NCBI GenBank assembly: GCA_963674945.2
Contig: CAXXWQ010000001.1
Span: 256,001 to 320,000 of the forward strand
Origin: an uncultured Desulfosarcina sp.
GTDB taxonomy: Bacteria; Desulfobacterota; Desulfobacteria; Desulfobacterales; Desulfosarcinaceae
Direction: 5' to 3'
DNA length: 64,000 bases
The notes under the pieces are model-generated. The model saw only the letters and a list, made by a program, of their open reading frames with translations. It was not told where the DNA came from and made no database searches. Made by a program: the position numbers and the translations under genes. This document shows, one piece after another, positions 29,262 through 40,014 of the stretch; within the stretch, counting starts at the first letter, position 1, and each line of letters begins with the position of its first letter.

Positions 29262-30875
29262 TTATTTTCCCACCGAATAGAATTCATTATGAAGTCCCTT
29301 GGTGGCCACCGCAAATCGTCCCGCGATGCACACCGCCGCCATGGCCGCGGTGCCTTGAATCATTTCGGGAAGGGAGATCTGCCGGTTGAAATCACCCAAA
29401 TGGGGTCCGCTGGTGATGAGGATATCTCTTTCTCCACGATGCAATCCCTTGATTTGCCGTTCGTCATATCCCCGCGTCTTCAAAAAAGCGGAAAATTCTT
29501 CGTCGGTTAACGCGTTCTGGTCGGTTCGGCGCAACAATTCTGTCATGTACCGGTCGACGCCCATCTCTTCGATCATGCGATCGGCGAGTCGATTAAGGTC
29601 CACAGGAGGCCTGGGAACGGTTGTTGTTTCCACGAACCCCTCATAGTAGCCGGTAAATATTTCCCGGATCATCTTTTTCAAGGTGTCCCGATCGAAAAGC
29701 CCCCTGGCATCCACGGGATTCCCCTTTTCATCGATTCCCGCGCGGGACCTGTCCCGACATCGGAAGTGACTGCCGGCAACCAGCAGCAGACTGAAAAAAT
29801 GCGTACACACATGGCGGTAGAGGTTACGGCCATGGTCGCATATGGTCGCAAGATGCTCGAAGTCCCGAAGGCCGGAGAGGCCGAAGTTAGGGAAATCACA
29901 CGATTCCAACCATTGATCCAGTCTTCCGGCACGAAACCATTGGTAACGCCCCTGGTCTTCGCGGCGCAATCGTTGGGTGCGGTTGTGAAACAAGGGGATG
30001 GGGGCGTCGTGGATGATCCCTCTGGCGGCAAGCCGTCCCAATAGAAAGGCACTTCTTCTCAGTATCTCCTTGGCAAAGGGTGTCTTCATCAAAGGATCAT
30101 TGGGGTAGACGAAATAGTCCCTGTGGGCCAAGAACCCGATGGCCAATCTTTCCGGGTGCAGTGCACTCTCCATGGGAGGGCGGATCGGAAGACGGGTGAT
30201 GCAAAAAACCATGCGGTTCTGGATTCGTATGGGGGTGGGGATGTCGAACCGGCAATCGACTGTGAAATCGGGCTTTTTGAGCATTTCCATCCATCGGATC
30301 TCGTTGGCCAGGGCAGAGATTGGTTCCGATTGCTTCGCCAGTTTGATGACCAGTACCCGGTTGGATTGCGGTATCGACGCCACCAGGCTTCGCCCCACAT
30401 AACGTGGGTTATCAGCCGAAACGAGCCCATTTGCTTTTATGAGACGCTCCCAGGAGATCGTAGGGTGCGAAGAGATGGGACCGATCGTGAGGCGTGGCCC
30501 CGTGATTCGAACCGGCAGGCTGCCCAGCGCCTCGGCGATGCCCCGATGTGCGCTGCCGTCCGTTTGCCGGAGCAGTTCGACCAACGAGGCAAGTGCTGTG
30601 GCTCCCAATCCGTCGGTCTCCGGGGAGACTGCAAGATCGGTCAGAATCTTCGCCACCTCACGGAAAAGAAAATAGGACTGGCGTGCGTTTTCATGGTCGT
30701 TTGACACCAACAGTCGCGCCGCGGTTTCGACGGTCCGTTCATCCATGACGCCCGGATGCTTTTGTGCCAATCGACGAAGGTCGGCCACGGCGTGGTATGT
30801 CGCGATAAAATCGAAACTGGGATCAAGCAGGGCCGATAGGGCCTGCTTTTTCAGGGTGTGTGCATAAGTGGGCAT
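29262..30875 (-). CDS. SidJ-related pseudokinase
   Basis: Kinase-like N-lobe LVIKL...NEIRWM, then PLFHNR...RREDQGRYQW..AGRLDQW..SCDFPNFGLSGLRDFEH, recognised as the SidJ-homologue signature. Confidence 0.75.
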   Translation of the reverse strand: MPTYAHTLKKQALSALLDPSFDFIATYHAVADLRRLAQKHPGVMDERTVETAARLLVSNDHENARQSYFLFREVAKILTDLAVSPETDGLGATALASLVELLRQTDGSAHRGIAEALGSLPVRITGPRLTIGPISSHPTISWERLIKANGLVSADNPRYVGRSLVASIPQSNRVLVIKLAKQSEPISALANEIRWMEMLKKPDFTVDCRFDIPTPIRIQNRMVFCITRLPIRPPMESALHPERLAIGFLAHRDYFVYPNDPLMKTPFAKEILRRSAFLLGRLAARGIIHDAPIPLFHNRTQRLRREDQGRYQWFRAGRLDQWLESCDFPNFGLSGLRDFEHLATICDHGRNLYRHVCTHFFSLLLVAGSHFRCRDRSRAGIDEKGNPVDARGLFDRDTLKKMIREIFTGYYEGFVETTTVPRPPVDLNRLADRMIEEMGVDRYMTELLRRTDQNALTDEEFSAFLKTRGYDERQIKGLHRGERDILITSGPHLGDFNRQISLPEMIQGTAAMAAVCIAGRFAVATKGLHNEFYSVGK

Positions 30876-31078: not shown

Positions 31079-31720
31079 CTACAGCTTCAGAATCTCTCTC
31101 ATTTCCATTAGATGGTCGATATGGTGATCGGCCGCAAGGTCTTTGTTCCGGTATGCCACGAACACAACCCTGGCACCGGCGGCCGCCATTTCATCCACTT
31201 GAGAGTCACCCACGTAGACCATCTGTTCGGGTGAGATGGAAAAGTGTTCGATGATTTTTTCCAGGGCCTCGGGATGCGGTTTGGGAAATTGGACATCCCG
31301 GGCGGTAACCACAAGGTCGAACAGGTGTCCGATTTTGTTGTCGGACAGAACGCGCTCCATGGTATCGGTCCGGTTGGTGGCAACCGCCGTCTTCAGTCTT
31401 GGCCGAAGGGTCTCCAACAGAGGGACCAGTCCCGGCTCCATCTCCATGTATTGCAAAAATGGCAGATAGCCGACCTGCTTGCGGTATTCATGTGCCAGTG
31501 CACGGGTCGTTTCTTCGGGAAAGAGCCGGGTCAGCACCTCATCCACGGTATGCATGTGGGCATAGGACAGTTGATCCGGCGTCATGGCCGGTTTCCCGAA
31601 ATGTTCCAGCAGATGATTGTAATACGCTTTGTTGGCCTTGCGGGACTCGAACATTACGCCGTCACAATCAAGGGCGACGACTTTCATTTTACCGTCCAAG
31701 TTTCCAGCTTTACTACCCAT
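31079..31720 (-). CDS. HAD-superfamily hydrolase (phosphoglycolate phosphatase-like)
   Basis: LDCDGVM, ATN, KPHPE and YVGDS..D. The start overlaps the upstream stop. Confidence 0.9.
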   Translation of the reverse strand: MGSKAGNLDGKMKVVALDCDGVMFESRKANKAYYNHLLEHFGKPAMTPDQLSYAHMHTVDEVLTRLFPEETTRALAHEYRKQVGYLPFLQYMEMEPGLVPLLETLRPRLKTAVATNRTDTMERVLSDNKIGHLFDLVVTARDVQFPKPHPEALEKIIEHFSISPEQMVYVGDSQVDEMAAAGARVVFVAYRNKDLAADHHIDHLMEMREILKL

Positions 31721-32513
31721 TACCGTCGCCTTTTTGGGGCATCCAAGATCCCTGTTGGTTTGCTTTTGGGATGATCTGCCCGTATACCGGAACACGGATG
31801 GTCGGTTTGATTTTGCTGTCCGTGGTCAAAAAGATCGTGTCCGCATAGCGACCGGCCTCGGTCTTTTTATTCTTGATGGTGAGGACATACCCTTCGGCGT
31901 CCCTCCTGGTGAAGGGGGTCAGATCGAATTCGATATCCTTCCCGTTTCTCGCCTTGGCCGAAAGAATCTTGAACGGGTAGTTCTTTTCCAGCGTGATGGT
32001 GATCGTTTTCTCGACTTCGCTTCCCGCCGGACCGACCAGCCGGGCATACTTGTAATCCATTTTTAAAAATTCGATTACCTTGCCGCTGACAGACAGGGCG
32101 ATTTGGCCATTGGTCTTGTCATCGGTGAAAACGTGGATCTGTTTATTCAGCGTTCTGCCACCATAGCCGCTGGTGTTTACCTTGATGGTGATGGTTCCCT
32201 CGCCACCGGCGGGGATCTGCCTCGGGTAGGAGGCGGCCGAGCACCCTCAACCGGTTTTGACGCGGGTGATGGCCAGGGGGCCATCGCCCGTGTTCTTAAT
32301 CGAAAAATCGTGGCTGATCTGGGTGCCGTCCACCACCGGGTCGAAAACGAATTTCGGTTCCGGTATGATTGCCTTGGGTGCTTTGGCGATTTCCTCTATG
32401 GCGGGGGCTTTTGCGGCGATGTGCTCATTTTCCGCCGCCGCTATAATGCCGTACGTGCACCCCAGCAACGCGATCACCGTCGCGATTAGAACAATATAGG
32501 GCCTCATTGTCAT
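31713..32513 (-). CDS. DUF1573-type Ig-fold exported protein with an in-frame UGA (probable selenocysteine) at 32247-32249
   Basis: Track ORFs 32247..32513 and 31713..32060 are in the same frame, with only the TGA between them. Readthrough gives FSIKNTGDGPLAITRVKTG-U-GCSAASYPRQIPAGGEGTITIKVNT, aligning to the DUF1573 V.xSCGCT motif. Confidence 0.85.
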
Positions 32514-32642
32514 TTTCTCCTGTTATCGATTGTGTCGAACTTCGTGGCGCCAGATCGGTGCCCGTCCTTCGACAATGGTCTTACAGACCTTTCATCGGCC
32601 TAACAGACCTATCTCTTAAGGACAGCTTGGGTCTATGTCAAG

Positions 32643-35084
32643 CTACATTAGAAAAAACGGGTCCACGTCGACGGCCACCCTGACCTGCCCACCGGTGGAC
32701 CGGCTTTGTTTTTCTTCAAATACCCGGCGAAAGAAGCCCCGAAGGGTGCCGACATCCGGGCTCATGACCAGAATCTGCCATCGATAGTGGTTGGCAATGC
32801 GTGCCAGTGGTGCTTCGATGGGGCCCATGACCTTGATTCTGTTTCGGTTCGGGGCCATGGCTCCCTTCAGCTCACGGAAGCGCTCGCCCAGTCCATGGGC
32901 ATGCCCTGCGGTCTGCTCGGGATTTTTACCCGAGATGCGAACTGCCACCATGCGGGTAAACGGCGGATATCCCAGCATCCGTCGAAAACCGATCTCTTCT
33001 TTAAAAAAGTCCATGAAATTCTGCTTCTTCGCCGAGAGGATGGAAAAGTGGTTCGGGTTGTAGGTCTGAAGGATCACCTTCCCCGGACGTTTTCCCCGCC
33101 CCGCCCGACCGGCCACCTGCGCCAGAAGCTGGAAGGTCCGCTCTCCGGAACGGAAATCGGGGAAGTTCAAGGTCAGGTCGGCGCAGATGATGCCCACCAG
33201 CGTGATGCCCGAAAAGTCGTGACCCTTGGCCACCATTTGTGTGCCCACGAGGATGTCGATTCGTCTCTGTTTCAGATCCTTTAACAGTTTTACCATCGAT
33301 CCTTTGCGGGCCATGGTGTCCTTGTCCATGCGGGCCACCCGGGCACCGGGAAACAGATTTTCCAGCGCTTCCTGGATTTTTTCGGTCCCCACACCCAACA
33401 ACCTGATTTTGTCGGAACCGCAAGACGGGCAATTGGAAGAGGCGGCCCTTGTAAATCCGCAATAATGACAAAGAAATGCGTTGATCCGCTTGTGCAGGGT
33501 CAAGGAGATGTCACAATTTTTACACCGGATGGGATTGCCGCAGTGGCCACAGACGGGAGATGCTGAAAATCCCCTTCGATTCAGAAATATCAGGGCCTGA
33601 TCGCCCTTGGCCAGAGTTTCGCGGATGGCCGTTTTCAAAGGAGGCGTGATGAACCGGTCGATTCCGCGATCATCGCGGCTTTGGGACAGATCAACGGTTT
33701 GTATGGCCGGCAGCGGGTGGCGGTTGATGCGTTGTGTAAGATGTATTGATTTATACTTTCCAACGGTTACATTGTGCCAGGACTGGACCGATGGCGTGGC
33801 CGATCCCAACACCACCAGGGCATCGTGGTGACGGGCCAAGACGACGGCCAGGTCCCGGGCATTATAATGGAGTCCCCCTTCCTGTTTGTAGGAAGGGTCG
33901 TGTTCCTCGTCCACGACGATCAGGCCGAGGTCGTCGAAGGGCGCGAAAATGGAAGATCGAACCCCTACGGCGATGCGTGCTTCCCCTTTTGCGATGCGTT
34001 GCCATTGATCGTATCGCTCTCCTTTGGAAAGGCCGCTGTGGAGAACGGCCACCGTTTCTCCGAACCGGGCACGGAAGCGACGTTCGGTCTGGGAAATGAG
34101 GGCGATTTCCGGCACCAATACCAACACCCGCAGGTCTTTGTTCATGGCTGTTTCTGCAAGTCGCAGATAAACCTCTGTTTTCCCGCTGCCGGTAACCCCG
34201 GCCAAAAGGACCGTTTCAAACCCTTTTCCCAAAAGATGCGCCATGGTGTCAACGGCAACGCACTGCTCATCGGTGAGCGTCGGCGGCGTGTCCGGCGCGA
34301 TGGGGTCACCGAAGGGATCGCGGCAAACGATTGTTTCATGGACGGTAACCTGGCCGGCCTTTTCCATGGCACGAACCAGTGCCGGGGCCGTATGGATGTT
34401 TTCCGACAGGGAGGCAACACTGAGATCGCCCTCGGTCTTCAGTCGATCCAGGATGGTCTGGCGTTTCGCACTGAGGCGGCCGATGATGGGTTCGTCGGTG
34501 CGGGCCGATACCATTTTTACGGTCTTCGGTCGGATCTGACGTTCCCTGATCCGTCTCTCCATCCGTATCCAGCCTTTTTTTTGCATTCGATGCAAGAGCA
34601 CCCGTGAAACGGGTTGGCCCATGGCCTTTTTCAACTGCCCGATGGAGGAGGGCGTCCTGACAAGGGCGTCGAGAACGCGCTTTTCAATGGGCGACGGTCC
34701 TTGGGAACCAAGCGCCGTCGTACCACCGTCGTCGATACGGACAACGGCCATATCAGTCAGATTCAAGCCGGCCGGAAGGGCGGTGTGAATCACCATTCCC
34801 AAGGGATGCATATAGTAGTCGGCGATCCATCGGAAAAAGGGGATCATTGCCGCCGGAAAGATGGGGGTATCGTCCAATACGTCCAGGATGTGTCGGAGCT
34901 GTGGAAGATCCGTTTGATCTCCCGGTCCCAACAGGTATCCGGTGACGGTCCGTTTTCCGAACGGAACCAATACCCTTTTCCCTGCGATGGCCTGGTGTAC
35001 CAGGTGGTCCGGAACGCTGTAACAATAGGTTTCGTGAAGGGGAAGGGCCACCGCAATAGTTACGATCTGTTCCTTACAACCCAT
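32643..35084 (-). CDS. priA: Primosomal protein N' (replication restart helicase); start uncertain
   Basis: GVTGSGKTEVY, LVPEIAL, DEEHD.SYKQ, GSATPS, four CxxC Zn motifs and QVAGRAGR. Confidence 0.96.
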   Translation of the reverse strand: MGCKEQIVTIAVALPLHETYCYSVPDHLVHQAIAGKRVLVPFGKRTVTGYLLGPGDQTDLPQLRHILDVLDDTPIFPAAMIPFFRWIADYYMHPLGMVIHTALPAGLNLTDMAVVRIDDGGTTALGSQGPSPIEKRVLDALVRTPSSIGQLKKAMGQPVSRVLLHRMQKKGWIRMERRIRERQIRPKTVKMVSARTDEPIIGRLSAKRQTILDRLKTEGDLSVASLSENIHTAPALVRAMEKAGQVTVHETIVCRDPFGDPIAPDTPPTLTDEQCVAVDTMAHLLGKGFETVLLAGVTGSGKTEVYLRLAETAMNKDLRVLVLVPEIALISQTERRFRARFGETVAVLHSGLSKGERYDQWQRIAKGEARIAVGVRSSIFAPFDDLGLIVVDEEHDPSYKQEGGLHYNARDLAVVLARHHDALVVLGSATPSVQSWHNVTVGKYKSIHLTQRINRHPLPAIQTVDLSQSRDDRGIDRFITPPLKTAIRETLAKGDQALIFLNRRGFSASPVCGHCGNPIRCKNCDISLTLHKRINAFLCHYCGFTRAASSNCPSCGSDKIRLLGVGTEKIQEALENLFPGARVARMDKDTMARKGSMVKLLKDLKQRRIDILVGTQMVAKGHDFSGITLVGIICADLTLNFPDFRSGERTFQLLAQVAGRAGRGKRPGKVILQTYNPNHFSILSAKKQNFMDFFKEEIGFRRMLGYPPFTRMVAVRISGKNPEQTAGHAHGLGERFRELKGAMAPNRNRIKVMGPIEAPLARIANHYRWQILVMSPDVGTLRGFFRRVFEEKQSRSTGGQVRVAVDVDPFFLM

Positions 35085-35398
35085 TTTGCCGTAGTTGTCA
35101 TTGGGGACGCCAGCCATTGGATTCCAGATATCGGTGCTTTTGGACCGCTTTTTACTTTTCAATGGGTTGTACACTCAGGTGGAAGGGGTACAGCCGGATG
35201 ATGGCAGCCGAAATAACAATATAATATAGCCCCAGGTGGTTGTGGTTTCAACCCTGCATTTTTGCCTTTCTCCTTCAAATACGGTTACCCTGATTGCGAA
35301 CGGCTGCAATACCTGATACAAAGAAAAGAAGAAACATCCGCTACGGGCGGTTTATATCTGTCGGAAATTATCCATATACAAATCGATGGAGGTGTAAG

Positions 35399-39200: not shown

Positions 39201-39534
39201 GGTCATGCTCCCTTCGATGGTTGTTGAATCGCCTTTTCGTTCATCTTGACGGCACCGGATTGACAGACGATATGCAAAGGATTGATTTTTGATCTGCCAT
39301 TTTGAATAATCCAGGCACCGAATGCAATACCTGAATCGGCTGTCGCGATTTTTTTTGCCATGCAGCTACAAAACCGGCGCATCATTGATTCAGGCCTTTG
39401 ACTGGGAGCGATCATGATTGAAAAACACTTGACCCCCATGAAAATTGCAGGCACATTTCTGAAAATGTGAACATCTCCGGTGCGGGGGAGTCACTTTGAA
39501 ACGTGGAACATGCAAAGAGAAAATCGAAGAAAAG

Positions 39535-40014
39535 ATGATCCGACAGGCAACAAAAGAGGCACTCTTTCTCATCCTGATTTCCATCGGCCTGGCAATACTG
39601 GTGTATGCGGTCAGGTCCGATAAAGTGACGCTGCCGACGGTTGCGGGAATCGATGATTCTGCTACCGCAGTCACCCCAAAAAGCGTCGGCCCGTCAGAGA
39701 TCACCATTGAACAGGCACAACGCCTGTTCGAAAGTGATGCCGCTCTCTTTGCCGATGCCCGTAACCCAATCGACTTCGATGCGGGACATATCCGAGGGGC
39801 CGTTAACCTCTATGCGTTGGAGCCCGATGCATGGTTGCCCGATTTTTTCGTTACGACAGAACCGACGACTGTCATCGTCACCTATTGCGACGGCGAAGAT
39901 TGTCACCTGGCAAAGGATCTTGCCGTGATTCTGTTTAACAACGGTTTCGATCGGGTGCATCACTTGAAGGACGGTTGGGGGCAATGGAAAAGCCGGGGAT
40001 TGCCAATGGAATGA
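39535..40014 (+). CDS. Membrane-anchored rhodanese-like protein
   Basis: DAR...FDAGHIRGAVN, YCDGEDC and LKDGWGQW. Confidence 0.88.
   Translation: MIRQATKEALFLILISIGLAILVYAVRSDKVTLPTVAGIDDSATAVTPKSVGPSEITIEQAQRLFESDAALFADARNPIDFDAGHIRGAVNLYALEPDAWLPDFFVTTEPTTVIVTYCDGEDCHLAKDLAVILFNNGFDRVHHLKDGWGQWKSRGLPME

Follow-up and report, generated by a model that had tools for sequence, protein, structure and literature searches.

An in-frame TGA in an OS_HP2/DUF1573 gene

The window, the whole stretch of DNA analyzed (64,000 nucleotides), contained a predicted OS_HP2/DUF1573 selenoprotein gene at 31713..32513 on the minus strand, the product of which consists of 266 amino acid residues when UGA89 is read through, and 88 when it acts as a stop. 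When translated, the frame from 32513 to 31713 yielded 266 residues followed by a TAG stop, and its sole break was a TGA at 32247..32249 (minus strand), codon 89 in the context RVKTG*GCSAASYPR, which is predicted to encode the selenocysteine (Sec) of a U-G-C motif. The codon of Cys91, the invariant partner in this motif (37 out of 37 aligned proteins), was located at 32241..32243 (minus strand), and a GGAG stretch 3 nt 5' of the ATG (32517..32520, minus strand) may function as a Shine-Dalgarno sequence, judging from its letters. Under translation table 11, the same region gave two open reading frames (ORFs), 32247..32513 (88 aa) and 31713..32060 (115 aa), 62 codons apart. Therefore, the original prediction of a hidden recoded gene was correct in that the two ORFs formed one frame broken only by TGA, in that ORF calling split the gene, and in that recoding is predicted; on the other hand, the gene was not new, because the read-through protein scored 141.2 bits against NCBIfam NF041425 (OS_HP2 (seleno)protein; cut-off of 100), a catalogued family.

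Other properties also agreed with those of the OS_HP2 family (NF041425 = DUF1573, PF07610). The Pfam DUF1573 domain of the read-through translation spanned the TGA (residues 53-146; E 9.6e-19), the same U-G-C motif was present inside this domain, and the UGA aligned with the Cys of Cys-containing homologues. The protein is thus an ordinary member of the catalogued OS_HP2/DUF1573 selenoprotein family, with nothing new at the protein level. Zhang and Gladyshev described OS_HP2 in 2007, together with five other new selenoprotein families (PMC1976440), and a review from 2022, citing that paper, lists a DUF1573 domain-containing protein with the motif UGC (PMC9312934); in the main text of the 2007 paper, the legend of the SECIS figure names five of the six new families and leaves out OS_HP2 (PMC1976440).

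The protein was matched in 62 of the 65 genomes of the same taxonomic family, and a set of 71 genes (the family set) was drawn from the higher-scoring part of 89 matches; at the aligned codon, 62 of them carried TGA and 9 carried TGT/TGC. At the phylum level, NF041425 matches were found in 159 of 401 genomes (34 over the cut-off), and a phylum set was assembled from 69 loci, the 29 best and 40 hand-picked, after nine alignment rows from the second domain had been set aside. In this set, 50 out of 71 genes had TGA and 21 had Cys, a ratio that is not a prevalence because the loci were partly hand-picked. Altogether, 112 of the 142 homologues examined had TGA and 30 had a Cys codon at this position, which confirmed the claim that the UGA falls on a conserved Cys, and excluded a sequencing error or a TGA unique to this strain. 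Codon 89 was read as no other letter in contigs from three runs, all from one study that is possibly the source of the window itself. In a quick tree of the 142 genes, 13 changes between Sec and Cys were needed, nine of which were forced by well-supported branches. Tandem Sec and Cys paralogues were found at three loci (L038, L116, and L117), where the Cys copy was without most of both hairpins described below. Several members (L106, L121, L125, and others) were longer (about 340-430 aa), the Sec domain being followed by an apparent third Ig-like repeat, and one Cys-type paralogue (L073; G059:C4:1520395-1521015) had an in-frame TAG inside the match.

The gene was flanked on the minus strand by priA upstream (32643..35174) and by a HAD-family hydrolase gene downstream (31079..31687), both conserved in 29 of 29 family loci. 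Since priA and the HAD gene flanked the gene in few loci beyond the family, and neighbors were not conserved beyond the order, this arrangement has the appearance of synteny and not of a pathway. MauE, a membrane protein with a CGC motif, was encoded directly upstream in only two distant loci (among 57 neighboring ORFs chosen from the 136 listed for the phylum loci), and a rhodanese gene, MauE, and DUF1573 were adjacent in one locus (L102). The only MauE of the source genome (G000) was found elsewhere (L191; G000:C4:1415478), beside ORFs that we take to be CcdA-like and thioredoxin-like from their motifs. An ORF at 39496-40014 of the window, 7 kb from the gene, presumably encodes a membrane-anchored rhodanese-like protein. 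Two genes downstream, a SidJ-related pseudokinase (29262-30875, minus strand) matched NF033874 over the cut-off, and occurred in 24 out of the 29 family loci. A scan for promoters and terminators around the gene gave no informative result on the minus strand, an Rfam scan of the gene locus found no family, and the listing of sequencing runs included no RNA run that contains it.

Predicted export, fold, and function

A signal peptide was predicted at residues 1-27 (32433..32513, minus strand), likely cleaved after A25-A26-A27, and an N-terminal signal peptide was also recognized by eye in most of the aligned homologues, in line with the earlier claim of an exported product. The lipobox-like LLGC that had been taken as a hint of a lipoprotein was present, but its Cys19 was not conserved: of the 109 TGA homologues, only three had such a motif, and two of them carried the Cys within the hydrophobic segment, at residue 9-10. 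Among these homologues, a lipobox Cys properly placed at the end of the signal peptide was confined to this gene; a cleaved signal peptide (A25-A26-A27) appears more likely than a lipoprotein, and a strain-specific lipobox is possible.

In the AlphaFold2 model (37 sequences; pLDDT 90.5), the protein consisted of two β-sandwich domains: a first Ig-like (PapD/ASH-type) domain corresponding to DUF1573/NF041425 (residues 50-146; 32076..32366, minus strand), and a second Ig-like domain without Cys (residues about 148-248; 31770..32072, minus strand). U89-G-C91 was located in the loop that joins strand 80-87 to strand 92-95. The nearest folds (Z 10-13) were PapD/ASH-type Ig domains (HYDIN, VesB, and CEP192) and 2QSV from P. 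gingivalis. Among them, VesB (4lk4) was matched with a Z score of 11.8 and an rmsd of 2.0 over 96 residues, and 2QSV was also matched by profile (E 0.00095), although the matched stretch of 2QSV was without a C-G-C motif; a PDB search with the single sequence gave no match. The original prediction of an Ig-fold protein with a U-G-C motif was in good agreement with the model and these fold matches. However, sequence identities with the PapD/ASH-type matches were only 8-17%, and no function can be transferred from these folds. The product is thus predicted to be a 29-kDa precursor with a cleaved signal peptide and two PapD/ASH-type Ig domains.

U89 and C91 were the only conserved Cys positions in the 37 aligned proteins, and the predicted Sec occupies the first position of a two-residue redox-type motif. 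These features, together with the occurrences of MauE described above, speak for our best guess, a tentative one, of a periplasmic thiol/selenol redox role, in which a U89-C91 selenenylsulfide would be formed and resolved with partner proteins; metal binding and a structural selenenylsulfide are the alternatives.

Two hairpins downstream of the TGA

Positions in the mRNA were numbered from the base after the UGA (+1, 32246 in the window). The region folded into two hairpins with a free energy of -20.9 kcal/mol. The first, H1 (+13..+28; 32219..32234, minus strand), had the stem GCCUC/GAGGC and the loop CUACCC, which contains no G, and is predicted to shorten the spacer. The second, H2 (+32..+51; 32196..32215, minus strand), is the predicted SelB-binding hairpin, with an 8-bp stem (-11.7 kcal/mol) and the loop C-GGU-G (GG at 32207-32206), that is, a loop of 3-5 nt (GGU or CGGUG) with the pattern N1-GG-N-N2.

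The foldable mRNA directly 3' of the UGA that had been pointed out in the original prediction was a different hairpin (+1..+35). It can be drawn, but was rejected as a SECIS element: its free energy was -9.9 kcal/mol, 11 kcal/mol weaker than the two-hairpin fold, and its covariation (0.128) was no better than that of slid controls (0.131 and 0.132); the conserved structure is a different one. While the UGA is being decoded, its 5' arm would sit in the mRNA channel of the ribosome. Since 85.9% of its positions were paired, above all 500 shuffles, it may be an alternative fold that exists before the ribosome arrives.

On the other hand, when H1 and H2 were mapped onto 54 family sequences, 92.4% of positions were paired and the covariation was 0.243, a value reached by none of 500 shuffles, with 0.114 for the best slid control. 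Against synonymous shuffles, the mean z values of TGA genes in the family set were -2.63 (H1) and -2.18 (H2), versus -0.22 and +0.57, respectively, in Cys genes. The phylum set gave -2.54 and -1.65 in 50 TGA genes, and -0.32 and +0.28 in 21 Cys genes; z was near 0 in the control windows of both sets. The homologues in these statistics are kin and not independent. Both hairpins reached -5 kcal/mol or better in 75 out of 107 distinct TGA sequences versus only 1 out of 30 Cys sequences, and the remaining 32 TGA sequences fell below this threshold chiefly because of H1. An additional GG hairpin at the canonical position was found in 17 of the 107. In all 12 pairs of Sec and Cys members (eight near-sisters on the tree and four looser ones), the Sec member folded both hairpins more stably, and H1 was nearly intact in one Cys partner (L065). 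RNAalifold consensus folding of the family alignment did not recover H1, and returned a weak fold that paired the UGA region together with a looser H2. At the level of sequence comparison, these results showed that both hairpins are under selection specific to UGA genes. Conservation of the GG alone proves nothing in this respect, because it is encoded by a Gly that is also invariant in Cys homologues.

The stems of H1 were wholly different between families, and its loops had no common sequence (CUACCC, AAUC, AACC, UCUUUC, and others). H1 and H2 abutted each other, with mean linkers of 1-2 nt.

Spacing and decoding of UGA89

The distance between the UGA and the GG loop of H2 was about 39 nt (38-39) in this gene; among the 78 homologues that had both hairpins, it ranged from 38 to 45 nt (39 nt in 64). 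The published bacterial SECIS model (bSECISearch, as summarized in PMC13188914) allows 16-37 nt from the UGA to the apical loop. H2 had the loop and stem of the consensus (E. coli fdhF-type) element, but its spacing was outside the range, by only 1-2 nt; furthermore, unlike the single continuous stem-loop of the consensus element, a separate, conserved, G-less hairpin was found in front. As a reference within the same genome, 24 other Sec candidates were collected by coding score and Cys-aligned paralogues, and 23 of them were kept; the rejected one (candidate 1456, C4:1003807; spacer of 48 nt) had no family match and looked non-coding. An NCBIfam scan of 16 of the 23 gave matches for 13, to families such as the MvhD-, HdrA-, FdhA-, SelD-, PrxU-, HesB-, and hydrogenase-type ones, several below the cut-off; for the other seven, the evidence consists of paralogues in the same genome that align with Cys. 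All 23 had a hairpin with a GG or GU loop 17-27 nt after the UGA, mostly at 20 or 23 nt.

When H1 was subtracted from the spacer of the OS_HP2 genes, mean values of 17.5-22.3 nt were obtained. Since this is the usual range, we infer that SelB probably binds H2 and that the surplus spacer is taken up by H1: canonical SelB would bind the GG loop of H2, and H1 would fold out about 16-19 nt, bringing this loop back within its usual reach. We give the combined reading, in which UGA is decoded as Sec by canonical SelB with H2 bound and H1 removing the excess spacer, a probability of roughly 65%. The compensation in length is not exact, because H1 was not longer in the seven genes with a 41-nt spacer (18.7 versus 19.0 nt). 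The distal layout is likely due to the protein sequence, which supplies no GG at the usual distance; the GG loop would come instead from P-x-G-G, whose invariant Gly lies 14 codons downstream, such that the nearest fixed GG would have been recruited and the gap bridged.

The strongest competitor accepts Sec insertion and regards H2 alone as a slightly distant SECIS element, with H1 either slowing the ribosome at the UGA for more read-through or acting as a mere helper. This is compatible with a spacer of 39 nt that is barely beyond the 16-37 nt of the model, with the wider occurrence of H2 (103 of the 107 TGA sequences) than of H1 (77 of 107), and with the start of H1 at about +11, the position at which a stem would come up against the entrance of the ribosome. 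However, the other Sec genes of the genome all lie at 17-27 nt, the range regained by subtracting H1, and the direct abutment of the two hairpins also speaks against this competitor. We consider the H2-alone explanation unlikely, and a requirement for H1 as a spacer-shortener rather than in another role is somewhat favored.

The decoding machinery was also examined. The source genome carried selA, selB, selC, and selD, all four genes that the original prediction had asked for; selD had its own TGA, and the tRNA-Sec was 98 nt long. In addition, there was a second selB gene, directly preceded by a second UCA tRNA (92 nt) with A1:U72 and U73, for which the sole Rfam match was tRNA-Sec (51.3 bits). 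These genes (selC* and selB*; G000:C3:570736-572793; L003, L096) were convergent with a cluster that we assume to be YedE-type. Such an arrangement of a tRNA with SelB* has been described (PMC5389517, PMC7609411), and in the selC* tRNA-Cys(UCA)/SelB*/CysRS* system of Mukai et al. (2017), which has the same A1:U72, U73, and position of the UCA tRNA directly before a second selB, UGA was suppressed with Cys in E. coli (PMC5389517). The UGA could accordingly be read as Cys in this strain, wholly or under Se shortage, and Cys works at the position of codon 89 in 30 homologues. Nevertheless, unlike in the system of Mukai et al., selC*/selB* was located elsewhere in the genome, the TGA of the gene did not track it, and a cysS* query found no match in the source genome and four congeneric genomes. 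The pairing of selC* and selB* recurred in nine of nine other loci checked, and was followed by cysS* in five, none of them in this genus.

Two selB matches were found in only 12 of the 65 family genomes at E<=1e-70, a threshold under which weaker selB* copies could fall. Moreover, the TGA form was not confined to selB* genomes: nine near-closed genomes (1-2 contigs: G012, G013, G015, G017, G031, G032, G034, G043, and G044) with one selB at E<=1e-70 carried it, for which reason Sec via canonical SelB is regarded as the route of this family. UGA89 is thus very likely decoded as Sec, and reading as Cys appears improbable; no dependence of the gene on selC*/selB* is apparent, and a Cys backup in this strain is possible.

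One genome (G018; 88% complete) had only a selB*-type gene (G018:C140:6126-8021, L094) and no match to the OS_HP2 protein. A Cys-type DUF1573 paralogue was found ~2.5 kb from selC*/selB* at one locus (L091; G022:C148:20071-25192), and was absent from the other selB* loci examined. A second CysRS was present within a 763-aa frame of the source genome (G000:C1:209660-211018; L082, L190), with the same long form in four congeners; its N-terminal part seems to resemble cysteine synthase.

It is even harder to assign SelB binding to H1, as a G-less SECIS class at an E. coli-like distance with H2 in a secondary role: H1 had the stronger mean z and starts 11-13 nt after the UGA, similar to the upper stem of fdhF, but its loops had no sequence in common, in contrast to the GG/GU loops of H2 and all 23 other candidates. 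That the UGA is a true stop or a pseudogene lesion leaving an 88-aa fragment may practically be disregarded: a second ORF could begin at a downstream Met (152), but the same codon was TGA in 112 genes across many families, the TGA splits a domain that is intact on either side, and the structure 3' of the codon was selected in TGA genes only.

What is unusual in this gene is the recoding signal; the protein itself is ordinary. According to a review from 2026, the consensus model does not fit all bacterial SECIS elements, and those outside it must belong to classes of their own (PMC13188914). The OS_HP2 signal is a well-supported candidate for such a class, with natural switches from Sec to Cys as controls. 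Whether a distinct class extends through the phylum, with a spacer hairpin of no fixed sequence where the mRNA enters the ribosome and a distal GG-loop hairpin at ~39 nt, is an evenly balanced question on the present alignments. No description of a two-hairpin or tandem SECIS was found in the open-access main text of the literature, the supplements of which could hold a drawing of the OS_HP2 SECIS. If the proposal is true, the limit between the UGA and the loop would be set by the folded distance and not by the nucleotide count; SECIS-based searches would miss selenoproteins with still more distant loops, and gene finders would need a wider rule. Engineers could then also position the SelB loop at a greater distance from the UGA, easing the coding constraint that limits recombinant selenoproteins.

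The other Sec candidates of the source genome, at least 23 in number, included five MvhD-type proteins, four HdrA, three Fe-S oxidoreductases, and four methyltransferase-like proteins, two of which were scanned and had no NCBIfam match at 1e-12. The source genome also encoded the large subunit of a [NiFe]-hydrogenase (L177; G000:C4:3305836-3307551), closest to Group 1-type models. In its N-terminal motif (C-G-V-U), the second Cys position was occupied by the TGA; a CxxC was present at the C-terminus, and the SECIS, at 23 nt, was a canonical one. Among its close family matches (>=79% identity), 30 out of 47 had one TGA in the N-terminal region, with the codon position checked in the source genome only. 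In a recent report, only two sequences with an N-terminal CXXU in Group 1 are given as previously reported (PMC13582414), and this hydrogenase merits a separate study.
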